DNA from: Christensenellales bacterium
Lineage (GTDB): Bacteria; Bacillota; Clostridia; Christensenellales; DTU072
Assembly (NCBI GenBank): GCA_050945855.1
Contig: JBMNTS010000004.1
Coordinates: 5,464 to 69,463, forward strand
Reading direction: 5' to 3'
Length of the DNA stretch: 64,000 nt
This document shows positions 26,915-63,861 of the stretch, piece after piece. The position numbers and the translations under genes were made by a program. The notes under the pieces were generated by a model. The model was not told the origin of the DNA, did no database searches, and saw only the letters and a list, made by a program, of their open reading frames with translations. Position 1 is the first letter of the stretch. Each line of letters starts with the position of its first letter.

Positions 26915-26985
26915 AAAAAACGGGGTGCTTCGGCTGAGATTATACCCGAATGACCGGAACAAGGTAATTCTTGCGTCGGGATTTT
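26915..26985 (+). promoter_or_regulatory. TPP (THI-box) riboswitch
   Basis: Conserved core GGGGUGC..GCUGAGA..ACCC..UGACCGGA..GGUAAUUC..GCG..GGGA read from the sequence. Lies directly upstream of a thiamine transporter gene. Confidence 0.85.
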
Positions 26986-26994
26986 AAAGAGTAT

Positions 26995-27026
26995 GACTTC
27001 GGCGAATGCGTCGAAGTTTTTTGTTT
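26995..27026 (+). terminator. Candidate riboswitch expression-platform terminator
   Basis: ACTTCG-11 nt-CGAAGT followed by TTTTTTGTTT, between the aptamer and the thiT RBS. The stem is short. Confidence 0.5.
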
Positions 27027-27036
27027 GGAGGGCGCA

Positions 27037-27732
27037 ATGAACGAAAACAATATTGTATGGATAATGGCAGGCGTAATAGCTTTGGCTTATGTGCTGTTAT
27101 ACGCTTTTGCCAAAAAAACGCCGACAAAAGTTAAGGCAAAATCCCTGGCGTACGCAGGAGTAATGGTGGCGCTTTCTTTCGGTTTGAGCTATATAAAAAT
27201 ATTTTCGATGCCGCAGGGCGGCTCACTTACCTTATTAAGCATGCTGCCGATTATGCTTTACGCTTATATGTTCGGTCCAAGAGAAGGGCTTGTCGCCGCC
27301 GCCGCTTATTCCGTATTGCAGTGTGTGCAGGGAGTGTTTTTTCTTAATTTTCTGCAGTTTTTGTTTGATTATATAATAGGTTTTACCCTGTTGGGACTGG
27401 CGGGATTGTTTCACAAAAGCAAAATTAGGATTAATCTAAACGTAGAAAAAGCCAAAAAAAGCGGATTAATAAGAGTATACGAAGTAATAAACGATTTTCC
27501 GCTTGCGTTGGTTGCGGGTATGACGATAGGCTTTATCGGCCGCTATTTAGCTTCCGTAGTCGCGGGCTATGTGTTCTGGGCAGATTACGCCCCGCCGGGA
27601 CAGCATCCGTTGATTTATTCCGTTGTTTACAATTCGATATTGCTTGCGGACGGCCTTATCGCGGTTGCGGGCGGAGTGGCATTGATGTACGTAAAACCCT
27701 TAAGAAGGCAAATAGAAAACGCGGCAAAATAA
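27037..27732 (+). CDS. thiT: Thiamine transporter ThiT (ECF S-component / YuaJ family)
   Basis: Six-TM protein resembling ThiT (FSMPQGGSLTLLSMLPIMLYA). GGAGGG RBS before the ATG at 27037. TPP riboswitch upstream. The track start at 26971 would run through the riboswitch. Confidence 0.85.
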   Translation: MNENNIVWIMAGVIALAYVLLYAFAKKTPTKVKAKSLAYAGVMVALSFGLSYIKIFSMPQGGSLTLLSMLPIMLYAYMFGPREGLVAAAAYSVLQCVQGVFFLNFLQFLFDYIIGFTLLGLAGLFHKSKIRINLNVEKAKKSGLIRVYEVINDFPLALVAGMTIGFIGRYLASVVAGYVFWADYAPPGQHPLIYSVVYNSILLADGLIAVAGGVALMYVKPLRRQIENAAK

Positions 27733-39524: not shown

Positions 39525-39601
39525 CGGGGTGTGGCGCAGTTTGGTAGCGCACATGGTTTGGGACCATGGGGCCGGGAGTTCAAATCTCTTCACCCCGACC
39601 A
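39525..39601 (+). tRNA. tRNA-Pro (anticodon TGG)
   Basis: Hand-folded cloverleaf. Acceptor CGGGGTG/CACCCCG, anticodon loop TTTGGGA, T-loop GTTCAAATC, encoded CCA. Confidence 0.92.
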
Positions 39602-39619
39602 AAAAACCTGCCTTATAGT

Positions 39620-39696
39620 GGGCCTTTAGCTCAGTTGGTCAGAGCGGCCGGCTCATAACCGGTTGGTCCGCGGTTCGAGTCCGTGAAGGCCCACCA
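39620..39696 (+). tRNA. tRNA with anticodon CAT; an elongator type, probably lysidine-modified tRNA-Ile2 rather than tRNA-Met
   Basis: Acceptor GGGCCTT/AAGGCCC has a G1-C72 pair, so it is not an initiator. Anticodon loop CTCATAA. The GGNCCTTTAGCTCAGTTGGT..GGCTCATAACC pattern resembles Bacillus/E. coli tRNA-Ile2 as I recall them. Encoded CCA. Confidence 0.85.
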
Positions 39697-39713
39697 AAAA
39701 ACCTTATCTTTGC

Positions 39714-39790
39714 GGTCCGGTAGTTCAGCTGGTTAGAACGCTAGCCTGTCACGCTAGAGGTCGAGGGTTCGAGTCCCTTCCGGATCGCCA
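39714..39790 (+). tRNA. tRNA-Asp (anticodon GTC)
   Basis: Acceptor GGTCCGG/CCGGATC, anticodon stem CTAGC/GCTAG with loop CTGTCAC, encoded CCA. Confidence 0.92.
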
Positions 39791-39795
39791 CTTAT

Positions 39796-39871
<76 letters not shown>

Positions 39872-40032
39872 TCACCTAAAAGGGCGAGACATCGCTTTTT
39901 TTAATTAAGGTGCAGGTACCGTATTGGGGTACCGCGACCTGCGACCGGCGTAATGTAGATAAGTTAAAAAACCGTTAAAACGTGTAAATTGCTTGCATTT
40001 AACGCATAATATATGCTAATATATTTTGGCGC

Positions 40033-40108
40033 GCTGGTTTAGCTCAATAGGTAGAGCAGCTGATTTGTAATCAGCAGGTCGAAGGTTCAAGTCCTTTAAC
40101 CAGCTCCA
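40033..40108 (+). tRNA. tRNA-Thr (anticodon TGT)
   Basis: Acceptor GCTGGTT/AACCAGC, anticodon stem GCTGA/TCAGC with loop TTTGTAA, encoded CCA. Confidence 0.9.
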
Positions 40109-40110
40109 TA

Positions 40111-40196
<86 letters not shown>

Positions 40197-50478: not shown

Positions 50479-51647
50479 AAAAAATCCTTTTTGTCCTTTT
50501 GATAATAGTAATCTTTACCTTGTTTTTGCCTGTGCAGCGTCCCGCCTATGCGCAAAATAAAGAGGACAAACTGGACGGGCAGATTGACAAAACGCTGGAC
50601 AAACTGGATTACAAGGATCTGGAAAGCTTTTTTAACGAAATAAACGAAGCCGCTGTGTTCGGAAACAACTTCAAACAACTGCTTAAAGACTTGCTTTCCG
50701 GAAAATCAGCGTTGGGGGCGGATAAGATTTCCCTGCTTGTCCTTGCGTATATAAGAAATGCTTTCCTAGGGATGCTTCCCCTGGTTATCACTCTTTTGGC
50801 GGTAGGCTTGCTGTACGGACTGGGCAGCAACCTTTCCTCAGGGTTTTTGAAGAAAAGCACTACGGATATTATCTATTATGTATGCCTGGGCGCGATAGTG
50901 ATTGTGCTCATTACTTCCGTCAACGGAATTATTGCGGATTTTCGCCGCACAATAGATTTACTTTCCAAATTTAACGATATAGTATTCCCCATTCTGCTCA
51001 CTCTGGTAACCGCGCTCGGAGGGGTAAGCGCGGCAGGGGTATATCAGCCGGCAATAGCCGCTATAGGCGCGATTATAATAAAAATAGTAACAGCGACGGT
51101 TATGCCCTTATTCCTTGCCTGTATCGTTTTTTGCATTATCGGTAGCCTTAGCAACAATATCAAACTGGATAAGTTGACGAATACCACAAAGTCAACGGCG
51201 GAATGGATACTTGGCATTATGTTTTCGCTGTTTATCGCTTTTATCAGCGTGGAGGGAATTGCGGGCTCCGCATTTGACAGCGTAACCATAAGGAGCGCGA
51301 AGTTCGCGCTTTCCGGATATCTGCCCATTATCGGCGGCCAGATTTCGGACGGCTTTGATTTGGTGGTGGCCAGTCTTATTCTTCTTAAAAATTCCTTCGG
51401 ACTGATTTCTATTATTATCTTGCTTTCCATAGTGCTTGCGCCCGCAATCAAGATAATTTTGTTTTCCTTATTATTAAAGGCGACAGCCGCCGTTTTGGAG
51501 CCTGTGGCAGACAAGCGCGTGTCCGACCTGCTTTTCAATACCGCCAAGTGTTTTAATTTGCTTTTAGTCATAATTATCGGACTTGCATTCATTATTTTTA
51601 TTATGCTGATGTTGATTATCGTTACCTGCAATCTGGGGATGGTGTAA
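50475..51647 (+). CDS. spoIIIAE: Stage III sporulation protein AE
   Basis: Signal peptide VKKILFVLLIIVIF..AYA, then a polytopic SpoIIIAE-like body. GTG start in a GTGA overlap with the spoIIIAD stop; the track start at 50352 is out of context. Confidence 0.88.
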   Translation: MKKILFVLLIIVIFTLFLPVQRPAYAQNKEDKLDGQIDKTLDKLDYKDLESFFNEINEAAVFGNNFKQLLKDLLSGKSALGADKISLLVLAYIRNAFLGMLPLVITLLAVGLLYGLGSNLSSGFLKKSTTDIIYYVCLGAIVIVLITSVNGIIADFRRTIDLLSKFNDIVFPILLTLVTALGGVSAAGVYQPAIAAIGAIIIKIVTATVMPLFLACIVFCIIGSLSNNIKLDKLTNTTKSTAEWILGIMFSLFIAFISVEGIAGSAFDSVTIRSAKFALSGYLPIIGGQISDGFDLVVASLILLKNSFGLISIIILLSIVLAPAIKIILFSLLLKATAAVLEPVADKRVSDLLFNTAKCFNLLLVIIIGLAFIIFIMLMLIIVTCNLGMV

Positions 51648-52129
51648 TGAGCGCGTGGCTTTTTTCCATCGCCGGAGTGATAATACTTTCGGGCTTATTG
51701 GACCTTGTCCTCTCCGAAGGCGAAACCAAAAAGTATGTTAAAGGCATCATATCCATAATAGTTATCGCGACTATAATATCCCCTTTGACAAAACTTGCCG
51801 ACAAAGATACGGCTCCCCTTTTCCCCGAGTTAAAGGAAAGCGCGCAAACGGATGAGGCGTTTGTAGCGGCAATAAGGTCTGAGCGTGAGGAACAGGCAAG
51901 GACAGCCATACGGGACGCGCTGGCAAAAGAAGGCTTAAGCGCGGAGATTAAAGTATATTCGGATAACCTCAACGGATATTTTTATATAAAAAATGTTACC
52001 TGCACTTTTGACAAATCAGTCATAAAGGAGGAAGATGCGAATATAGATATTAATAAGAAAATCAAGAGCATTATTGAGGATGTCAGCGGTGTTTCACACG
52101 AGGAGATAATAATTATCTATGCAGGCTAA
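51647..52129 (+). CDS. spoIIIAF: Stage III sporulation protein AF
   Basis: Two N-terminal TM helices plus a soluble ring-building-motif-like domain. Operon position. Confidence 0.82.
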   Translation: MSAWLFSIAGVIILSGLLDLVLSEGETKKYVKGIISIIVIATIISPLTKLADKDTAPLFPELKESAQTDEAFVAAIRSEREEQARTAIRDALAKEGLSAEIKVYSDNLNGYFYIKNVTCTFDKSVIKEEDANIDINKKIKSIIEDVSGVSHEEIIIIYAG

Positions 52130-52559
52130 AGCTATCTCGGCAAAAGCAAAGGAGTTTTGGGAAAAGGCTAAGACAATAAAGAACATAGAAATTATTATCG
52201 CCGTAATAGCAATAGGGATAGTGTTGTTGATATACGCTTCCACCCTTTCCTCAAACAAGATAAAAAATACGTCCCTGCCGTCCGCAAATCAGATTGCGGG
52301 AGAGGGAGAGGAAGAAAGGTTGGCTGCCATATTAAGCCAGATAGAGGGCGCGGGCAGGGTAAGCGTGATGATTACTTACGAGAAGAACGATTACGCCGCC
52401 GAGGCAAGCGCGGAGGCGGGCGAGCCCAAAATCAAAGGGGTAATCATCGTAGCGGAAGGCGCGCAGGATGTGGCGGTAAGGCTTAATCTGATAAGGGCTG
52501 CGCAAACGGTATTGGATATCAAATCAGACACTATAGAAGTGTTTGTTATGAAAAAATAA
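52119..52559 (+). CDS. spoIIIAG: Stage III sporulation protein AG
   Basis: N-terminal TM helix and conserved C-terminus (GAGRVSVMITY, IKGVIIVAEGA). Confidence 0.88.
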   Translation: MQAKAISAKAKEFWEKAKTIKNIEIIIAVIAIGIVLLIYASTLSSNKIKNTSLPSANQIAGEGEEERLAAILSQIEGAGRVSVMITYEKNDYAAEASAEAGEPKIKGVIIVAEGAQDVAVRLNLIRAAQTVLDIKSDTIEVFVMKK

Positions 52560-52579
52560 ATAATAATTCGGAGGCAAAT

Positions 52580-53116
52580 ATGAAAGGTGACAAAAATCGC
52601 GCAATTGCAACAGCTACTGTTACCACCAAGGAGAAAAAGTCAAAAGGCTTGAATCAAAACAAGAAAAAGACAATCATACTTATTTCCATGATTGTTTTGC
52701 TGGTTACGGTAGGATGTCTCAATTATTTTCTCAACTTCCCGCCTAAAGCGGAGGAAGACCCCACCGCTCCTACCTTCTTTGCGACATTCAGGATAGACAG
52801 AGAAGCGACGCGCGCTCAGGAGATACTATACTTAGACGGCATTATCGCAAGCGAGCTATCCACTCCGGACGCCATTGACGCGGCTCAGGAAAAGAAGATA
52901 AACCTCTGCGACACAATGGAAAAGGAACTGGTGCTGGAAGGGCTTATAAAAGCGCAGGGCTTTGAGGACTGTATCGTGACTATGAGTACGGAAAATGTAA
53001 ACATAGTGGTAAAGACAGAAAATCTGGGACTGGAGCAAGCAGCGCAAATACTTAGCATAATAGTAAACGAAACCGATTACACTGCGCCCGATGTTATATT
53101 AATACCTTACGTATAA
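52580..53116 (+). CDS. spoIIIAH: Stage III sporulation protein AH
   Basis: N-terminal TM helix plus a YscJ/FliF-like C-terminal domain. Last gene of the operon. Confidence 0.85.
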   Translation: MKGDKNRAIATATVTTKEKKSKGLNQNKKKTIILISMIVLLVTVGCLNYFLNFPPKAEEDPTAPTFFATFRIDREATRAQEILYLDGIIASELSTPDAIDAAQEKKINLCDTMEKELVLEGLIKAQGFEDCIVTMSTENVNIVVKTENLGLEQAAQILSIIVNETDYTAPDVILIPYV

Positions 53117-54852: not shown

Positions 54853-56035
54853 CAGAAATTATCTAAGTGTTTCCGAATACAACGCGTATATAAAAGATTT
54901 GCTTGACAGCGATATGTTGCTGAAAAACGTTTTTGTTATGGGCGAAGTCAGCGACCTTTCTCCCAGAGGGGACCATTTGTTTTTTACGCTGAAAGACGAA
55001 TATTGCAAAATGAGCGTGGTGGTTTTGGGCTATAGGAATACCTATACTCCCAAAATGGGCGAAACGGTTATGGTTATGGGCACCCCCGATTATTACGAAA
55101 GGGGCGGCAAGCTGAATTTTAACGCGTACAACATAGAGCCGGTAGGGCTGGGAATGCTCTACCGAAAACTGGAAGAGCTAAAAGAAAAGCTTGCCTTATT
55201 GGGGTATTTTGACCGCGAGCATAAAAAGAGCCTGCCCAAATATCCGCAAAGTATCGGCATACTCTCCAGCATAGACGGCGCAGTTTTTTTTGATATTTTT
55301 CAAAGCATACGCAAGATTAACGAGGTGTGCGATATTACCCTTATAGACATTCGGGTGCAGGGCGCGGGAGCGGCACAAAGTATAATAAAAGCGCTTAAGG
55401 CGGCGGACACAATGGGCTTTGACTTGTTGATACTTGCCAGAGGCGGAGGCTCTTTTGAGGATTTGCTCTGCTTTTCGGATGAGGAAGTAGTCAAAACCAT
55501 TTACCGTCTTAATACGCCGGTAATTTCCGCCATAGGTCACGAAACGGATAATCCGTTAAGTGATTACGTAGCGGACGCGCGCGCGATTACGCCTACGGAA
55601 GCGGGAAAAATGAGCGTGTATAACACCGCTGTTGTTAAAGCGGAGATTATGGAAAAGATTCTCCTATGCAAGAAAAAGCTTGAAAAGAAGTTCCGTTATA
55701 CCCTGCTTAAAGTCACCGGCAGCGCAAAGAGAGTAGGGTTTACCTGCGGTCTTGCGCTTAACGGGCAAATCGGCGACCTTAAAGAAAGACTGCGTATTAT
55801 TTCGGATAAGGCAAAGGAGGGGGTCACCGCAAAAGAGGCGGAATTAAAGCTGGCTTCGCTTGCGATGGATAAATTAAACCCCGCCAAGGTATTATCCAAA
55901 GGTTACTTCGGAGTAACCAAAAACGATATTAAGGTTACCCAAATAGACGATTTAGAGATTGGCGACAAAATTGAACTGATTGGCGCGGACGGCAAAGCCT
56001 GCGCCGTGGTAAACAGTAAGGAGGTAAGGCAATGA
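54839..56035 (+). CDS. xseA: Exodeoxyribonuclease VII large subunit
   Basis: OB-fold N-terminus and catalytic core (ARGGGSFEDL, ISAIGHETD). Confidence 0.93.
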   Translation: MKEDNRNYLSVSEYNAYIKDLLDSDMLLKNVFVMGEVSDLSPRGDHLFFTLKDEYCKMSVVVLGYRNTYTPKMGETVMVMGTPDYYERGGKLNFNAYNIEPVGLGMLYRKLEELKEKLALLGYFDREHKKSLPKYPQSIGILSSIDGAVFFDIFQSIRKINEVCDITLIDIRVQGAGAAQSIIKALKAADTMGFDLLILARGGGSFEDLLCFSDEEVVKTIYRLNTPVISAIGHETDNPLSDYVADARAITPTEAGKMSVYNTAVVKAEIMEKILLCKKKLEKKFRYTLLKVTGSAKRVGFTCGLALNGQIGDLKERLRIISDKAKEGVTAKEAELKLASLAMDKLNPAKVLSKGYFGVTKNDIKVTQIDDLEIGDKIELIGADGKACAVVNSKEVRQ

Positions 56036-56241
56036 GTCTGGAAGAAGATATTAAGCGGCTTGACCAAATAGTGGCGGATATGGATAAGGAGGAGCTTACC
56101 TTAGACCAAAGCCTGAATTTGTTTAAGGAAGGCATAGAACTGGCAAAGAAGTGCGCCACCTTTTTGAACGAGAAAAAAGGGGAGCTCAAGGTGCTGGACG
56201 AGCAATTAAAAGAGCTTGAAGTGGAACTTGAGGAAGAATGA
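56032..56241 (+). CDS. xseB: Exodeoxyribonuclease VII small subunit
   Basis: 69-aa helical protein (LE....F..G..L...C). Overlaps xseA. Confidence 0.9.
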   Translation: MSLEEDIKRLDQIVADMDKEELTLDQSLNLFKEGIELAKKCATFLNEKKGELKVLDEQLKELEVELEEE

Positions 56242-57065
56242 AGGCGTATTCTGATTATATAGACATAATCGAAAATGACATTTCCGATTTTCTCGGAGGA
56301 CTAAAGCATGTTCCCTCATCGCTTATGGACGCGGTACGTTATTCCTGCTTAAACGGAGGCAAAAGAGTACGCCCCATACTTCTGTTTTTAAGCGCGGAAA
56401 TTAACGATGTGGACACGGACAGCGTAAGACCGCTGGCGCCGGCTTTGGAATTCATACATTCTTATTCGCTTATACACGACGACCTCCCCGCTATGGATAA
56501 CGCAGAATTAAGAAGAGGAATGCCCGCCACGCATAAGGTATTCGGCGAGGCTATGGCAATTCTGGCGGGAGACGCGCTTTTGAATTTTGCTATGGAAGCG
56601 CTTACCCGTGCTGTGTGCGAAAAGCCTTATCTTGCGCACGCGGCAAAATATCTTGCCTCAAAGGCGGGTGCGGAAGGTATGATCGGAGGGCAGGCTATGG
56701 ACATATCTTTATATAAGGAAAACGCGACGGGCAAAGTAATAGAAAAAATGAGTATGCTTAAAACCGCCTCTTTAATGGAGAGCGCCCTTTGTATGCCTTG
56801 CCTGATTCCCGATACTAAGCCCAATTTTGCGGAATTTGAGAAATTGGGCGCAAACATCGGCCTTATTTTCCAGATTACCGACGATATCCTTGACCTGGGC
56901 AAAGAAGAGGACAAACCGACGCTGGCAAACCATTTCGGCAGGCAATGGTGCGCGGACAAAATAGCCTCATTGGAGGCCGAGTGTTTGGAAATTCTTGATA
57001 AATATCAAGAAAAGTCTGTCTTTCTTAAAGGTTTTATACATAAACTTACAAACAGAAGTATATAG
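56238..57065 (+). CDS. ispA: Polyprenyl (farnesyl) diphosphate synthase
   Basis: FARM motif HDDLPAMDN and SARM motif DDILD. ATGA overlap with xseB. Confidence 0.92.
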   Translation: MKAYSDYIDIIENDISDFLGGLKHVPSSLMDAVRYSCLNGGKRVRPILLFLSAEINDVDTDSVRPLAPALEFIHSYSLIHDDLPAMDNAELRRGMPATHKVFGEAMAILAGDALLNFAMEALTRAVCEKPYLAHAAKYLASKAGAEGMIGGQAMDISLYKENATGKVIEKMSMLKTASLMESALCMPCLIPDTKPNFAEFEKLGANIGLIFQITDDILDLGKEEDKPTLANHFGRQWCADKIASLEAECLEILDKYQEKSVFLKGFIHKLTNRSI

Positions 57066-57069
57066 TTTA

Positions 57070-57098
57070 TTGCAATAAAAATATACTTATGCTATAAT
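57070..57098 (+). promoter_or_regulatory. Near-consensus sigma-A promoter (TTGCAA-17 nt-TGcTATAAT) driving the large ncRNA
   Basis: Read from the sequence, 5 nt after the ispA stop. The transcription start is predicted near 57105. Confidence 0.7.
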
Positions 57099-57104
57099 TA
57101 ATAT

Positions 57105-57690
57105 CTAAATATGGTGGCTCAGTATTCTAGTCAGGTGAGCATTATCTGAAGGCGGGGTTAAAATTCCGTCAAAGAGCATATCGATGAAGTTTCTTGTGCC
57201 GGCTTGGATTGCCCAAATTTGGGCTGGTGCTGGAAGTTAAGATTCTTGGGCGTTCCGTAACGGCATACGGGAGCCGACCCAATTATCGTGGAGACCCTTT
57301 TCGGAGGGCGTAAAACCGCCTTCTGGCTGGGATTAAACCTGCAGCGCGGTAAATAATAGCTGTGTGCAGTGTAGCTTGCTTTGAGTGGTATGGGCGAATG
57401 AGATTTTAGCTCCCTATCCGTTGGCCAATGGAGAAGGAGTATTGATTTCTGAAACTTATGCTGCAAAAGAAGATAAGGTAATGCGAATCTGTCAAGGAAA
57501 GCTTCTAGACTGATATAAGCTAAGGATTATAGTGTGCACTAAGTGGCGATTCGGTTGTGTATTTGAGCAATCGTACACTGTAAGGATTAAAGGGAAACCG
57601 CTTGTACGGCGACGGCAAGTTCTTTGCAGGGAAACCCTACCGAACCTGATGGCGCAAGGTTTACTTAGCTTATTGCCACCATTTTTTATT
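57105..57690 (+). ncRNA. ole: OLE (ornate, large, extremophilic) RNA-class large structured ncRNA
   Basis: About 585 nt with no credible ORF, between ispA and a 4-TM protein gene. It has its own promoter. A long-range closing helix pairs ATGGTGGC (57111-57118) with GCCACCAT (57675-57682) and is followed by a U-run. Multiple local hairpins are present. The gene context xseAB-ispA-[RNA]-membrane protein-tlyA-nadK-argR-recN is the context published for OLE. The covariance model was not run. Confidence 0.75.
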
Positions 57691-57700
57691 TTGAGGGAAT

Positions 57701-58297
57701 ATGTCCGGGACAAAGAAAGATAAAAGCGCGACAAGCGACAATCAGCGCAGCAAAGAAAACAGACAACAGAAAGAAAAGAAAAAAAAGGTCAGATGGATTA
57801 TTTATATTACGCTACTGGGATTGATTTTTTCCATAGCGTTTAATTTTTTATCCCAACTGGCTTCACAGTCCGCCAACGTTTGGGCGGTAATCCTCATTTT
57901 GGTATTCTTATTATTTATAAACATAGCGGGAGACGGCATCGCTCTTGCCACGACCGCCTGCGAATTGTCACCCCTTTTCGCTATGGCGGCGCGCAAGGAA
58001 AAAGGCGCAAAGACCGCAATATGGCTGGTGAAGAACTCGGAAAAAGTCAGCAGCGTGATATTGGACGTGTTGGGGGATATATCCGGCCTGCTTTCCGGTG
58101 TATTTATTGTAATTATCACAATTCAACTTTTTAAAGATGAGCGGGCGCTATCGCTGGCAAACCTGTTGCTTCCCGCCTTATTCGGAGGCATTATAATCAG
58201 CGGCAAAGCGATAGTAAAAGTTTACGCACTTAAAAATCCCAAAAGAATTGTGCTGGGATTCAGCAGAATGCTGGAAATTTTCAGAAAAAACAAATGA
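57701..58297 (+). CDS. oapA: OLE-associated protein A-like small membrane protein (4 TM helices, basic N-terminal tail)
   Basis: 198 aa. Lys/Gln-rich N-terminus, four hydrophobic helices, and paired GD motifs (NIAGDGIAL, VLGDISGLL). Lies immediately 3' of the OLE-like RNA. ATGA overlap with tlyA. Confidence 0.7.
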   Translation: MSGTKKDKSATSDNQRSKENRQQKEKKKKVRWIIYITLLGLIFSIAFNFLSQLASQSANVWAVILILVFLLFINIAGDGIALATTACELSPLFAMAARKEKGAKTAIWLVKNSEKVSSVILDVLGDISGLLSGVFIVIITIQLFKDERALSLANLLLPALFGGIIISGKAIVKVYALKNPKRIVLGFSRMLEIFRKNK

Positions 58298-59016
58298 GGC
58301 TGGACGTATATCTGGCGCAAAGCGGGCTAGCCCGCTCACGCAGCGAGGCGGCCAATCTGATAAAACTGGGCGCGGTCTTTGTAGGCGGCGCAAAGGCGGA
58401 CGCTCCCTCAATGAGCATTAATCCCGACAATCTTCCCGAAATTGAAATTACATCGGAAATTTACGCTTCCGTAGGCGCGCTGAAGCTAAAGGCGGCACTG
58501 GATTATTGGCATCCGGAAATTGCGGATAAAATCGCGTTGGACGCGGGCGCATCCACAGGCGGCTTTACCGATTTGCTGTTAAAGAGGGGAGCAAAGAGGG
58601 TTTACGCCGTGGATATCGGGCAAGGTCTGTTAAGGGATGAGTTAAGACAGGACAACAGGGTAAAGGCTATAGAAAATACCAATATCAGAAATATGACTTT
58701 GGAAACAATATCGGAAAAATGCGATATCATTACCGTTGACCTATCCTTTATTTCACTTAAATTGGTGCTTGACAACCTAAAGCAATTCCTTGCAGAGGAC
58801 GGCATGCTTATCGCGCTGGTCAAGCCGCAATTTGAGCTGGGCGCTTCCGCCCTGAATAAGCAAGGCATAGTCAAGGATGAGCAGCTTGCCTTGTCCGCCG
58901 TGGAGGATGTAAAGAGCTTTGCCGAACAATGCGGCTACAAAACGGCAGGCTATATTCCCGCTCCCCGCGATTTCCAAAAAAAGAACAGGGAATACCTGCT
59001 TAATTTAACTTTGTAA
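58294..59016 (+). CDS. tlyA: TlyA family rRNA (cytidine-2'-O)-methyltransferase
   Basis: S4 domain (MRLDVYL..SRS.A..LI) plus FtsJ-type SAM motif DAGASTGGFTD. Confidence 0.92.
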   Translation: MRLDVYLAQSGLARSRSEAANLIKLGAVFVGGAKADAPSMSINPDNLPEIEITSEIYASVGALKLKAALDYWHPEIADKIALDAGASTGGFTDLLLKRGAKRVYAVDIGQGLLRDELRQDNRVKAIENTNIRNMTLETISEKCDIITVDLSFISLKLVLDNLKQFLAEDGMLIALVKPQFELGASALNKQGIVKDEQLALSAVEDVKSFAEQCGYKTAGYIPAPRDFQKKNREYLLNLTL

Positions 59017-59072
59017 TCCCAATTATTCAATACTGATTGAATATTTATAAACAATAATGTATAATTATATTT

Positions 59073-59909
59073 ATGATATTAGGTATTTACGCTAACCTGC
59101 AACGCGATATTAACGGAGTCAACGCAAGCCTTATCGCTTCCGCCCTGCGAAAGGAAGGGATTAGGTTTTGTCTGGATAAGGAGTTAAGTTTTCTTAACAT
59201 TGACGCGCCGCATTATCCCATTGAAGAAATGGCAAAAATCTGCGACATTATAGTCACTTTGGGCGGCGACGGCACCATATTGGGCATAGCCAAGCATTGC
59301 GCGCATAACGGCTGCAAGATATACGGGCTTAATCTGGGCAATTTGGGTTTTTATACGGAGCCGCTTGACACCGAATGCAAAAAACTGATTGATTACATCA
59401 AAAAAGGCGCTCCCTTTGTCAGCGACATGCGTACTTTGCTTTCTGTCGAATATAACAATCGGTTATATTACGCTCTTAACGAAGTGGTGGTGGCGCGAGG
59501 CGCGCGCACAAAACTGATTAAGTTAAGCGTGCATATCAACGGCAGTCTTGCCGGCAATTACAAAGCGGACGGTATAATATTATCCACCGCTTCGGGGTCT
59601 ACCGCTTATTCCTTATCCGCGGGCGGACCCATTGTGATTCCCGATGTCGCGGCCTTTATTCTTACTCCTTTGGCGCCGCATTCTCTGCAATCGCGGCCTT
59701 ATGTGGTAAGCGAAAACAGCGTGATTAAGGCGACGCTTTTTTCCGATGAGCAACCCGCCCATATCCATATGGACGGCAACGAAATAGGGCTGTTGAACGC
59801 CGAAGAAAGCATTATCATAAAAAAGAGCGACAAATATGTGGAATTTGTGCGCTTTGAAGGTTACGATTATTACAACAGGCTAAGCGAAAAGATAAACAAA
59901 ATAGGCTAA
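59073..59909 (+). CDS. nadK: NAD kinase
   Basis: GGDGT motif and NE....R / STASGSTAYSLSAGGPI motifs. Confidence 0.94.
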   Translation: MILGIYANLQRDINGVNASLIASALRKEGIRFCLDKELSFLNIDAPHYPIEEMAKICDIIVTLGGDGTILGIAKHCAHNGCKIYGLNLGNLGFYTEPLDTECKKLIDYIKKGAPFVSDMRTLLSVEYNNRLYYALNEVVVARGARTKLIKLSVHINGSLAGNYKADGIILSTASGSTAYSLSAGGPIVIPDVAAFILTPLAPHSLQSRPYVVSENSVIKATLFSDEQPAHIHMDGNEIGLLNAEESIIIKKSDKYVEFVRFEGYDYYNRLSEKINKIG

Positions 59910-62117: not shown

Positions 62118-63140
62118 ATGGTTCAAAAAAAGGGTACTTACTTTGTTCTGCTTATTATTCTGATTTGCGTTTTTTCACTTAACTCACCCTTTTTTACTTC
62201 CGCGTTTGCCCAAACCGAATATGTATATCTTGGCGGCACACCGATAGGAGTAATCGCTTATCTTGACGGCGCTCTTGTGATTGACCTTGTGGAAATCAAT
62301 ACCAACGGGGGCACGGAGGCTCCCGCTGCCGCCGCGGGTATTAAAAAAGGCGACATAATAAAGCTGATTGAAAATACGCAAATAAAAAATGCGGCTGACA
62401 TCGCAAGAATTGTTGAGAAAAACGGCTCAAACATTTTAAGTATAACGGCAATCAGAGAGGATAACGAAATCAGTCTGAGCGCAAAACCCGCTTACGACAT
62501 AGTAGCCGGCAAGTATAAACTGGGCGTCTTGGTTAAAAATGAAGTCAGCGGCGTGGGCACATTGACATATATCAGACCGGATAATTTGCGCTTCGGAGGG
62601 CTGGGGCACAAAATCACGGACCCTAACTGCACTTCAAAAAATGTATATAACGAGGGCAGCATTTATAATTGCAATATTGTGGGAGTGGTAAAAGGCAAGC
62701 CCGGTGAAACGGGAGAGCTAAGAGGAGTGTTTAACAGAAATTCGGAATGCGAGGGCAGGCTGGATAAAAATCTGATAAGCGGCATATTCGGCAAATCATT
62801 TGGAAATCAGCTTTCCGGGTATCCCAAAATAGCACTTGGGGATAGCAAAAGCATAAAAATGGGAAACGCGCAAATATATACCACAATTAACGGAAGCTCC
62901 CCCGAATACTATGATATAGAAATAATAAAGTCCGTAAAGCAAACACTGCCCAACGAAAAAAGTCTGGTATTGCACGTAAAGGACGAAAGGCTCATTGCCG
63001 CAACGGGAGGCATAGTACAGGGCATGAGCGGCTCTCCCATAATTCAGAACGGCAAGCTGATAGGCGCGGTAACTCATGTGTTTGTCAATGACCCCACACG
63101 AGGTTTCGGGATTTTTATAGATTGGATGATTGATAACTAA
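62118..63140 (+). CDS. spoIVB: SpoIVB peptidase (S55 signalling serine protease)
   Basis: Signal/TM N-terminus, PDZ region (AAAGIKKGDII), and S55 catalytic Ser context GMSGSPII. Canonical recN-spoIVB order. Confidence 0.93.
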   Translation: MVQKKGTYFVLLIILICVFSLNSPFFTSAFAQTEYVYLGGTPIGVIAYLDGALVIDLVEINTNGGTEAPAAAAGIKKGDIIKLIENTQIKNAADIARIVEKNGSNILSITAIREDNEISLSAKPAYDIVAGKYKLGVLVKNEVSGVGTLTYIRPDNLRFGGLGHKITDPNCTSKNVYNEGSIYNCNIVGVVKGKPGETGELRGVFNRNSECEGRLDKNLISGIFGKSFGNQLSGYPKIALGDSKSIKMGNAQIYTTINGSSPEYYDIEIIKSVKQTLPNEKSLVLHVKDERLIAATGGIVQGMSGSPIIQNGKLIGAVTHVFVNDPTRGFGIFIDWMIDN

Positions 63141-63252: not shown

Positions 63253-63861
63253 ATGATATACTTTTGGGAAAATATCAAGAGGGTATTTATTGATATTAAG
63301 CAGTTGTTTTTTTGTCACAGACTGCATTTTTTAATATGCGCCGGAGTGGCCTTGCTTGCCATTCTGATTGCGCTTAACAACGCCTCCGCCGAAATAGTGA
63401 TATATCACCCCAACTTTATCGTATTGATAATTCAGGGCTCTTTTAACCCTTTAGCCTTTCTTTTCCAACTGATAATATTCGGCGCCTTGATTTTTTTATT
63501 CCTTTTCCTGGCTTGCTGGCATTTTGTCTTTTATCTGCTTATATATCCGTTAGTTTATTTTTCCGTGTATAAGTTTATGCTGCCCGTATTCGTAAGCTGT
63601 ATAGTGGACGGAATCAGCGGCATATTCTTAGTGTTCTGTTGTCATTTGCCTATTTGCCTTACCGGCTGCTATTGTTTTTCGGTAGCCGGTATAAGAGTGT
63701 ACAATTTATGCAATTATCCTCACCAAATCAGATATTTTAACAACCTTAAATATATGTCCAAAAGCATCTTTAACGAAATATGTTTCCCTTATCTTTGTTT
63801 TATATGCGTAAGCACATTATGGTGGTTGGTGCTGTATCTGATTTTCGCATTAATCTGCTGA
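63253..63861 (+). CDS. Hypothetical Cys/Phe-rich polytopic membrane protein
   Basis: 202 aa, about 5-6 hydrophobic helices, 13 Cys. No family recognised (a SpoIIM-like call cannot be supported). Confidence 0.45.
   Translation: MIYFWENIKRVFIDIKQLFFCHRLHFLICAGVALLAILIALNNASAEIVIYHPNFIVLIIQGSFNPLAFLFQLIIFGALIFLFLFLACWHFVFYLLIYPLVYFSVYKFMLPVFVSCIVDGISGIFLVFCCHLPICLTGCYCFSVAGIRVYNLCNYPHQIRYFNNLKYMSKSIFNEICFPYLCFICVSTLWWLVLYLIFALIC

Follow-up and report, generated by a model that had tools for sequence, protein, structure and literature searches.

A full-length OLE RNA family match between ispA and a putative oapA gene in an uncultured Clostridia-like bacterium

The window analysed here is a 64,000-nucleotide stretch of contig JBMNTS010000004.1, and our subject is the gap in it between ispA and the next credible coding sequence, in which a sequence-only reading of this DNA had placed an orthologue of the large structured RNA known as OLE. 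ispA ends at position 57065 and the downstream coding sequence starts at 57701, which leaves 635 nt and agrees with the coordinates previously given. The features of the locus, with positions counted within the window, are these.

56238-57065, + strand: ispA (farnesyl diphosphate (FPP) synthase; Pfam polyprenyl_synt, NCBIfam FPP synthase), the usual upstream neighbour of ole
57070-57098, + strand: proximal promoter of the sigma-70/sigma-A type, with -35 box TTGCAA at 57070-57075, a 17-nt spacer and extended -10 box TGcTATAAT at 57090-57098
57098-57695, + strand: OLE RNA gene, given as the extent of the match to Rfam family RF01071; 141 of 154 model pairs canonical, 202 of 209 conserved columns kept
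57701-58297, + strand: putative oapA, encoding a 198-aa membrane protein, with Shine-Dalgarno sequence GAGGG at 57693-57697

The covariance-model search that had been suggested for this gap gave a clear result. With Rfam 15 run over the whole window, RF01071 (OLE) matched 57098-57695 on the + strand, 598 nt, with 472.1 bits, where the gathering score is 50, and an E-value of 2e-135; the match spans model positions 1-616 of 616 and is not truncated. The same model applied to 18 OLE RNAs from other species gave 306-554 bits, so that the window copy lies in the mid-range. The RNA of the gap also folds better than 100 of 100 dinucleotide shuffles (z = -4.06), and the conserved columns counted above, in which the window keeps the consensus base at 202 of 209, are those for which 89 other OLE RNAs show conservation of at least 90%. 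Sequence identity to 89 sampled OLE RNAs was 55-73%. Among the matches listed the nearest, at 72.8% identity, comes from Ca. Stercoripulliclostridium merdigallinarum, a Clostridia metagenome-assembled genome (MAG), and the near relatives are Clostridia MAGs, for example of Ca. Stercoripulliclostridium and Christensenella. We regard the identity of 57098-57695 (+) as an ole gene as established, and consider it very probable that its product is a typical full-length OLE RNA working as the known OLE ribonucleoprotein (RNP) in an uncultured, Clostridia-like host that forms spores. The ends of the mature RNA probably lie at about 57105 and about 57690. OLE, a familiar membrane-associated noncoding RNA of bacteria with a length of about 600 nt, has been reported in more than 2,800 genome assemblies (PMC11332333).

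We next turn to comparative evidence. Species-representative genomes were searched with the conserved 15-mer CAGTATTCTAGTCAG, which returned at least 119 loci, nearly all in Bacillota, and nhmmer found an OLE homologue in 110 of the 119 loci listed. The window and 89 full-length homologues from other species were aligned with MAFFT (alignment A1; Halalkalibacterium halodurans was not among the loci), and pairs were counted on the Rfam structure projected through the window row, plus the terminal helix proposed in the sequence-only reading, for a total of 162 pairs. Over the 90 OLE RNAs, standard pairs filled 87.2% of cells, as against 40-46% with the 3' partners slid by 1-3 columns. Compensatory changes, with both sides altered, occurred at 139 of the 162 pairs, and 0 of 500 column shuffles attained any observed pairing measure. 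On the window itself the Rfam consensus structure forms 154 pairs, 141 of them canonical (91.6%). Alignment to other OLE loci, which had been put forward as a check, revealed strong covariation both in the model helices and in the terminal helix (89 Bacillota loci; a pair count, not R-scape).

The neighbourhood of the gap was assigned with Pfam and NCBIfam and reads spoIIIAF, an unassigned open reading frame (ORF), spoIIIAH, asp23/yqhY, nusB, folD, xseA, xseB, ispA, ole, oapA, tlyA, nadK, argR, recN, spoIVB. The OLE-typical order xseA-xseB-ispA-OLE-oapA-tlyA-nadK-argR-recN had been recognised correctly; dxs, which had been named as a further member, is absent from the cluster. The protein encoded directly downstream has four hydrophobic segments (residues about 29-54, 52-87, 118-145 and 148-177, by Kyte-Doolittle hydropathy and no dedicated transmembrane predictor), a lysine-rich N-terminus and a DxxxD motif, DVLGD, at residues 122-126. 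D122 and D126 are kept in 72 of 73 proteins encoded downstream of OLE, and each of the residues D78, D122, G125, D126, G133, K169 and K173 is shared by 71 or more of the 73. OapA has been described as a distant homologue or relative of the MpfA/CNNM Mg2+ transporters, with DxxxD as its signature (PMC11332333). Of 89 loci with sufficient flanking sequence, 87 encode a homologue of the window protein immediately after the RNA and on its strand, and the earlier description of a gene for a protein with four transmembrane segments at this place holds. The product of this gene is an OapA orthologue, for which orthology and synteny would predict OLE RNA binding and membrane anchoring as roles. The full-length RF01071 match, the covarying helices, the canonical neighbourhood and the OapA orthologue downstream bear out the original proposal that the gap holds the OLE orthologue of this genome.

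Sporulation genes flank the OLE cluster, all on the + strand: spoIIIAF and spoIIIAH (51647-53116) on one side and spoIVB (62118-63140) on the other. These genes point to an endospore-forming host and fit the reported correlation of OLE with sporulation genes; together with the Clostridia origin of the nearest OLE RNAs and the occurrence of the organism in metagenome assemblies only, they suggest a Bacillota anaerobe or extremophile. Between spoIIIAF and spoIIIAH lies a 146-aa ORF (52119-52559) with no Pfam match, which by its position is presumably SpoIIIAG. Downstream of spoIVB, a very hydrophobic ORF of 202 aa (63253-63861, +), rich in Cys, Phe and Leu, likewise has no Pfam match.

The promoter TTGCAA-17-TGcTATAAT was found where the sequence-only reading had located it. 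It scores 10/12 and carries the TG of an extended -10 box. The DNA here is AT-rich and promoter-like matches abound (13 found, 5.7 expected), so that a lone site is weak evidence. Its position is conserved: a promoter scoring at least 10/12 occurs within 75 nt upstream of the conserved block at 53 of 89 homologous loci (59.6%), compared with 2.4% of mononucleotide shuffles, and one scoring at least 11/12 at 22 of the 89, with a perfect consensus in several of the closest relatives. Transcription of OLE would be predicted to start near 57105. The proximal promoter just upstream of P1 has been shown to be active in B. halodurans, with OLE expression increased more than 100-fold (PMC3413148). Because no terminator-like site was found on the + strand within 56000-59200, read-through is plausible both from xseA-xseB-ispA into ole and onward into oapA; the co-transcription reported for H. 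halodurans OLE is consistent with it.

The ends of the RNA are closed by a long-range helix, P1, followed by a U-run, and both are present as had been proposed.

57111-57118, + strand: P1 5' strand, ATGGTGGC (RNA AUGGUGGC), pairing with 57675-57682 (helix 1)
57675-57682, + strand: P1 3' strand, GCCACCAT (RNA GCCACCAU) (helix 1)
57683-57692, + strand: U-run, TTTTTATTTT / UUUUUAUUUU, directly 3' of P1

P1 is not annotated in the Rfam OLE consensus structure. Covariation was seen at 7 of its 8 pairs, standard pairs fill 92.9% of its cells across the 90 OLE RNAs, and strand variants in homologues include GGAAUGGU/ACCAUUCC, GCGGCGGC/GCCGCCGC and CCGGAGGC/GCCUCCGG. A local 5' hairpin (57111-57120/57138-57146) was considered in place of P1 and rejected: it is 51% paired in the 90 RNAs, and since this is no better than its slid controls (38-59%), the terminal helix is favoured. 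A canonical intrinsic terminator after OLE was likewise rejected, as none was found on the + strand within 56000-59200 and the U-run is preceded by the long-range helix only. At least five T within 8 nt after P1 occur at only 25 of 90 OLE loci, so the U-run is no family feature; it may serve as a weak signal for termination or for the 3' end, and is no canonical terminator. It is also conceivable, if unlikely in our estimation, that P1 and the U-run work as a long-range terminator or attenuator that depends on folding, the ribosome-binding site of oapA lying 11 nt further on. The full OLE fold would then stop transcription before oapA, and an incomplete fold would permit read-in. If true, such attenuation would tie the ratio of RNA to protein to correct assembly of the RNA.

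The internal parts of the RNA, all on the + strand, are given below. Helix numbers were assigned by order to the published nomenclature, and only P13 and P14.1 are anchored by text descriptions.

57120-57134, + strand: conserved block CAGUAUUCUAGUCAG, unpaired in the family model
57151-57170, + strand: P2 hairpin, GCGGGG-UUAAAAUU-CCGUC region (helix 2, 96.9% paired)
57190-57236, + strand: P3/P3.1/P4 long hairpin with a GCCCA loop at 57211-57215 (helix 3: 20 pairs, 17 compensatory, 95.2% paired; the minimum-free-energy fold agrees)
57241-57287, + strand: P5/P5.1 hairpin with the conserved loop AACGGCAU (helices 4-5)
57295-57331, + strand: P6 hairpin, including the GAGGGCG/CGCCUUC stem at 57304-57323 (helix 6: 14 of 15 pairs covary)
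57339-57369, + strand: hairpin of the P7/P8 region (helices 8-9)
57378-57473, + strand: P9 long arm, capped by UUGGCCAA at 57421-57428 (helices 11-15)
57494-57512, + strand: P10 small hairpin at 57494-57504 (helix 16, 100% paired), then conserved CUAGACUG at 57505-57512
57514-57674, + strand: 3' domain, P12 to P15 (helices 17-22, 87-99% paired)
57514-57524/57664-57674, 57533-57537/57652-57656 and 57550-57555/57639-57644, + strand: nested helices of the 3' domain (helices 17-22 group)
57557-57578, + strand: P13 in the 3' domain, with GNRA loop GCAA at 57567-57570 and a 2-nt bulge at 57562-57563
57579-57586/57621-57628, + strand: P14 in the 3' domain
57600-57620, + strand: P14.1 in the 3' domain, with a GCGA loop at 57609-57612

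Because the block CAGUAUUCUAGUCAG served as the search pattern, it is invariant in the alignment by design. The P2 region is one of two mapped OapA-binding regions (PMC12265935). Two local hairpins had been singled out in the sequence-only reading. The GAGGGCG-taaaac-CGCCTTC hairpin at 57304-57323 is present and lies within P6, the tip of which is short relative to many relatives. At 57211-57224 the palindrome GCCCAAATTTGGGC exists, and its GCCC/GGGC stem was rejected, as covariation of helix 3 puts GCCCA (57211-57215) in the loop of the 57190-57236 hairpin. The tip of P9 carries the palindrome GGCC at 57423-57426; in other species the L9.3 GGCC palindrome is the kissing-loop dimerisation site by cryo-electron microscopy (cryo-EM; PMC12286853). 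The GNRA loops on P13 and P14.1 are the OapB-binding sites in H. halodurans (PMC7936274). By the definitions of these two reports (PMC7936274, PMC12286853) the motifs for protein binding and dimerisation are kept in the window, namely the P13 GNRA loop with its bulge, the P14.1 GNRA loop and the palindromic tetranucleotide of the P9 tip. We examined divergence of the OapB site as a candidate and rejected it: the A at 57566 and the U at 57571, two of the seven departures from conserved bases, together replace the G-C pair that closes the P13 tetraloop by A-U, a single compensatory change, and the GNRA loop is kept.

Two variations were seen elsewhere in the alignment. Eight loci (L101, L114, L037, L090, L005, L028, L009 and L095), including Oscillibacter and a MAG labelled Clostridiales, have an extra GC-rich hairpin of about 20 nt (GAAGCGCG...CGCGCUU) between the P3/P4 hairpin and P5, at A1 columns of about 145-164, which is absent from the window and the other 81. 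The two of these that were scored, L009 and L090, gave 391-394 bits, the lowest among 'full-length' copies. The P13 tip is deleted or much shortened in Christensenella-like L004, L022, L100 and L085 (A1 columns of about 700-712), and the window keeps it; the trimmed tips suggest a lineage-specific loss of OapB binding among close relatives.

Variation within the organism, which is present for example in samples ENA ERZ2647914 and JGI 3300064361, could be followed on four metagenome contigs; an exact match to the OapA protein occurs on metagenome contigs only. Across the gap, two of the four match the window exactly, one differs at 57105 only, and one has three substitutions, at 57079, 57344 and 57419 (variant contigs L120/L121). 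The C/A at 57105 is upstream of the helices, near the predicted start; the A/T at 57079 falls in the promoter spacer; the G/A at 57344 is in a bulge; and the C/T at 57419 turns a C-G into a U-G pair. None of the four strain substitutions breaks a helix.

Three other accounts of the gap were weighed against a functional OLE RNA. The gap contains short ORFs, and it might on that ground be held to encode one or more small proteins, with the RNA structure incidental. The three that had been listed, 57158-57466 (-), 57492-57734 (-) and 57532-57723 (+), do exist, and a fourth, of 42 aa at 57385-57513 (+), means that they are not the only ones; the four measure 42-102 aa. However, the three listed ORFs have no NCBIfam match, no gene is called in the gap on any of the four independent metagenome contigs, and coding potential was rejected on these two grounds. 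Conservation across species tracks base pairing instead (139 of 162 pairs compensatory), variation in hairpin length breaks the reading frames, and the full-length covariance-model match accounts for the entire gap. We give practically no credence to a protein-coding gap. A decaying, non-functional OLE remnant would explain why one common hairpin is missing and why 7 of 209 strongly conserved columns differ, yet two of those seven differences amount to the compensatory pair change that preserves the GNRA loop, the proportion of canonical model pairs is 91.6%, and the score falls in the middle of the family's range. The locus has kept its promoter and an intact oapA, the same hairpin is missing in 7 other species, and strain polymorphisms spare the structure, all of which makes decay highly improbable.

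The structured region could also be for the most part a giant 5' leader of oapA mRNA, acting in cis to control transcription or translation of oapA, and not a free-standing trans-acting RNA. The geometry of the locus would suit a leader: the start codon of oapA lies on the OLE strand, 18 nt past the end of the RNA, no canonical terminator separates the two, and the Shine-Dalgarno sequence of oapA (57693-57697) comes just after the U-run. In 87 of 89 loci, too, oapA comes after OLE and is read from the same strand. However, loci differ widely in the spacing between P1 and the downstream ORF (18-385 nt, median 77 nt), and together with the rarity of the U-run (25 of 90 loci) this argues that there is no conserved, fixed cis-regulatory geometry. 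In H. halodurans, moreover, OLE is a single, very stable and abundant species of about 600 nt that forms an RNP with OapA, OapB, OapC and bS21 (PMC3413148, PMC12265935), and OLE RNA dimerises protein-free in vitro (PMC12286853). A mere leader is in our judgement very unlikely.

Several observations weigh against a typical, working OLE RNP at this locus. The short hairpin that usually follows CUAGACUG in OLE RNAs is absent from the window and from 7 of the 89 others; on a lesser reading, this lineage may indicate that it is dispensable for OLE function. The P13 bulge is 2 nt where 1 nt is usual, and OapB binding is therefore not guaranteed. Thirteen of the 154 model pairs are non-canonical in the window. 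Against Pfam CNNM (PF01595) the OapA protein scores 25.8 bits (E 1e-05), under the 28.4-bit cut-off, a weak score that fits the description of OapA in the literature as a 'distant homologue'. Our covariation measure is a pair count on a MAFFT alignment with an Rfam-derived structure, and not an independent test like R-scape. Steps three to seven of the working scheme below are transferred from H. halodurans and Clostridium spp., and in the literature itself the biochemical function of OLE and its transmembrane model have the standing of hypotheses.

The OLE RNA of H. halodurans is abundant and stable, binds OapA, OapB, OapC and bS21, is membrane-localised through OapA, and is required to tolerate short-chain alcohols, cold, excess Mg2+ and poor carbon sources (PMC3413148, PMC12265935, PMC10898510). 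Cryo-EM has revealed homodimers that form without protein (PMC12286853), P3 has been proposed to span the membrane (PMC12265935), and the occurrence of OLE is anticorrelated with that of MpfA (PMC11332333). With these reports as a guide, the window copy may work in seven steps. The RNA would be transcribed from its own sigma-A promoter (57070-57098), starting near 57105, with read-through from xseA-xseB-ispA also likely; use of the promoter is predicted here from its sequence and positional conservation and has been observed experimentally only in H. halodurans. It would then fold into the conserved OLE architecture closed by 57111-57118/57675-57682, a step that covariation supports here. Its 3' end may form at or near the U-run, or transcription may continue across 18 nt into oapA, so that the RNA and its partner would be co-expressed. 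OapA, a four-helix CNNM-like protein with DxxxD, would bind the RNA and keep it at the membrane, as in H. halodurans and as orthology and synteny suggest here. Two RNAs may dimerise through conserved loops, including the GGCC at 57423-57426, as seen in cryo-EM of Clostridium OLE RNAs, whose motif is kept here. The GNRA loops of P13 and P14.1, with other elements, would recruit OapB, OapC and bS21, and the particle would help the cell to withstand alcohol, cold, excess Mg2+ and poor carbon sources. The likeliest biochemical role, following a hypothesis of the literature, is that OLE RNA would serve as the regulatory or sensing module of an OapA divalent-cation transporter, replacing the CBS/CorC domains of MpfA-type proteins.

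Some records that contain the OLE 15-mer carry labels from outside Bacillota: two Actinomycetota MAGs (L059, L078), a Fibrobacter MAG (L065), a Kapabacteria MAG (L074) and Varibaculum timonense (L060). L059, L060, L065 and L078 have a near-full OLE homologue. These labels probably reflect mis-binning or contamination; in the literature, 24 of 2,846 OLE-bearing assemblies lie outside Bacillota. Elsewhere in the window, a thiamine pyrophosphate (TPP) riboswitch (RF00059, 26911-26998, +; 56.8 bits, threshold 54.3) sits directly upstream of a ThiT/YuaJ-type thiamine transporter ORF (26971-27732, +; Pfam Thia_YuaJ, E 8e-36), an ordinary arrangement. Because the listed ORF start overlaps the aptamer, the true start of the transporter is probably further downstream. 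Rfam and ARAGORN also identified six tRNA genes at 39525-40196 (+): Pro-TGG, Met-CAT, Asp-GTC, Phe-GAA, Thr-TGT and Tyr-GTA.

Each correctly placed OLE copy adds slightly to the comparative data, and this one contributes a fairly compact sequence from an uncultured Clostridia lineage, with one 3'-domain hairpin missing, a compensatory change of the P13 closing pair and a well-defined promoter. It opens no new question, and any Rfam-based annotation pipeline would label it. OLE here is an already known element, a typical copy of a curated and well-studied family, and no new kind.

The wider comparison begins with other large RNAs. Like GOLLD, ROOL and the raiA motif RNA, OLE is large, highly structured and non-ribosomal, and GOLLD and ROOL also self-assemble; it has no sequence or structure relationship to these families, and its gene context differs from theirs, GOLLD and ROOL occurring with phages or in tRNA islands. 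An Rfam scan of the whole window gave no match to the GOLLD, ROOL or raiA motif families. On the protein side, the window OapA weakly resembles the CNNM transmembrane domain of the MpfA, CorB and CNNM Mg2+ transporters, and OapA with OLE has been viewed in the literature as a possible RNA-containing counterpart of MpfA. Unlike those transporters, OapA has no CBS or CorC domains, has the DxxxD motif that CNNM domains lack, and works with an RNA partner.

Reduced OLE variants are known from metagenome assemblies, and the window copy resembles them in its origin, an organism seen in such assemblies only, and in being somewhat trimmed relative to the largest OLE RNAs. In contrast to them it keeps P7/P8, the long P9 and the P13 GNRA loop, and its 472 bits exceed the 390-bit 'full-length' cut-off used by the authors who described these variants, whose model is not that of Rfam; it is therefore not a reduced variant. 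The closest likeness is to the experimental model, H. halodurans OLE, and to the OLE RNAs of C. acetobutylicum and C. botulinum, seen as dimers by cryo-EM, with which it shares the full-length model match, the conserved blocks and the helices. Terminal P1, the GNRA loops of P13 and P14.1, the GGCC of the P9 tip, the proximal promoter, oapA directly downstream and the gene cluster are common to the window and known OLE. The window differs in lacking the hairpin after CUAGACUG, in the short tips of P6 and P7/P8, in the 2-nt bulge and A-U closing pair of P13, and in a cluster without dxs; all of these differences are within known variation of the family.

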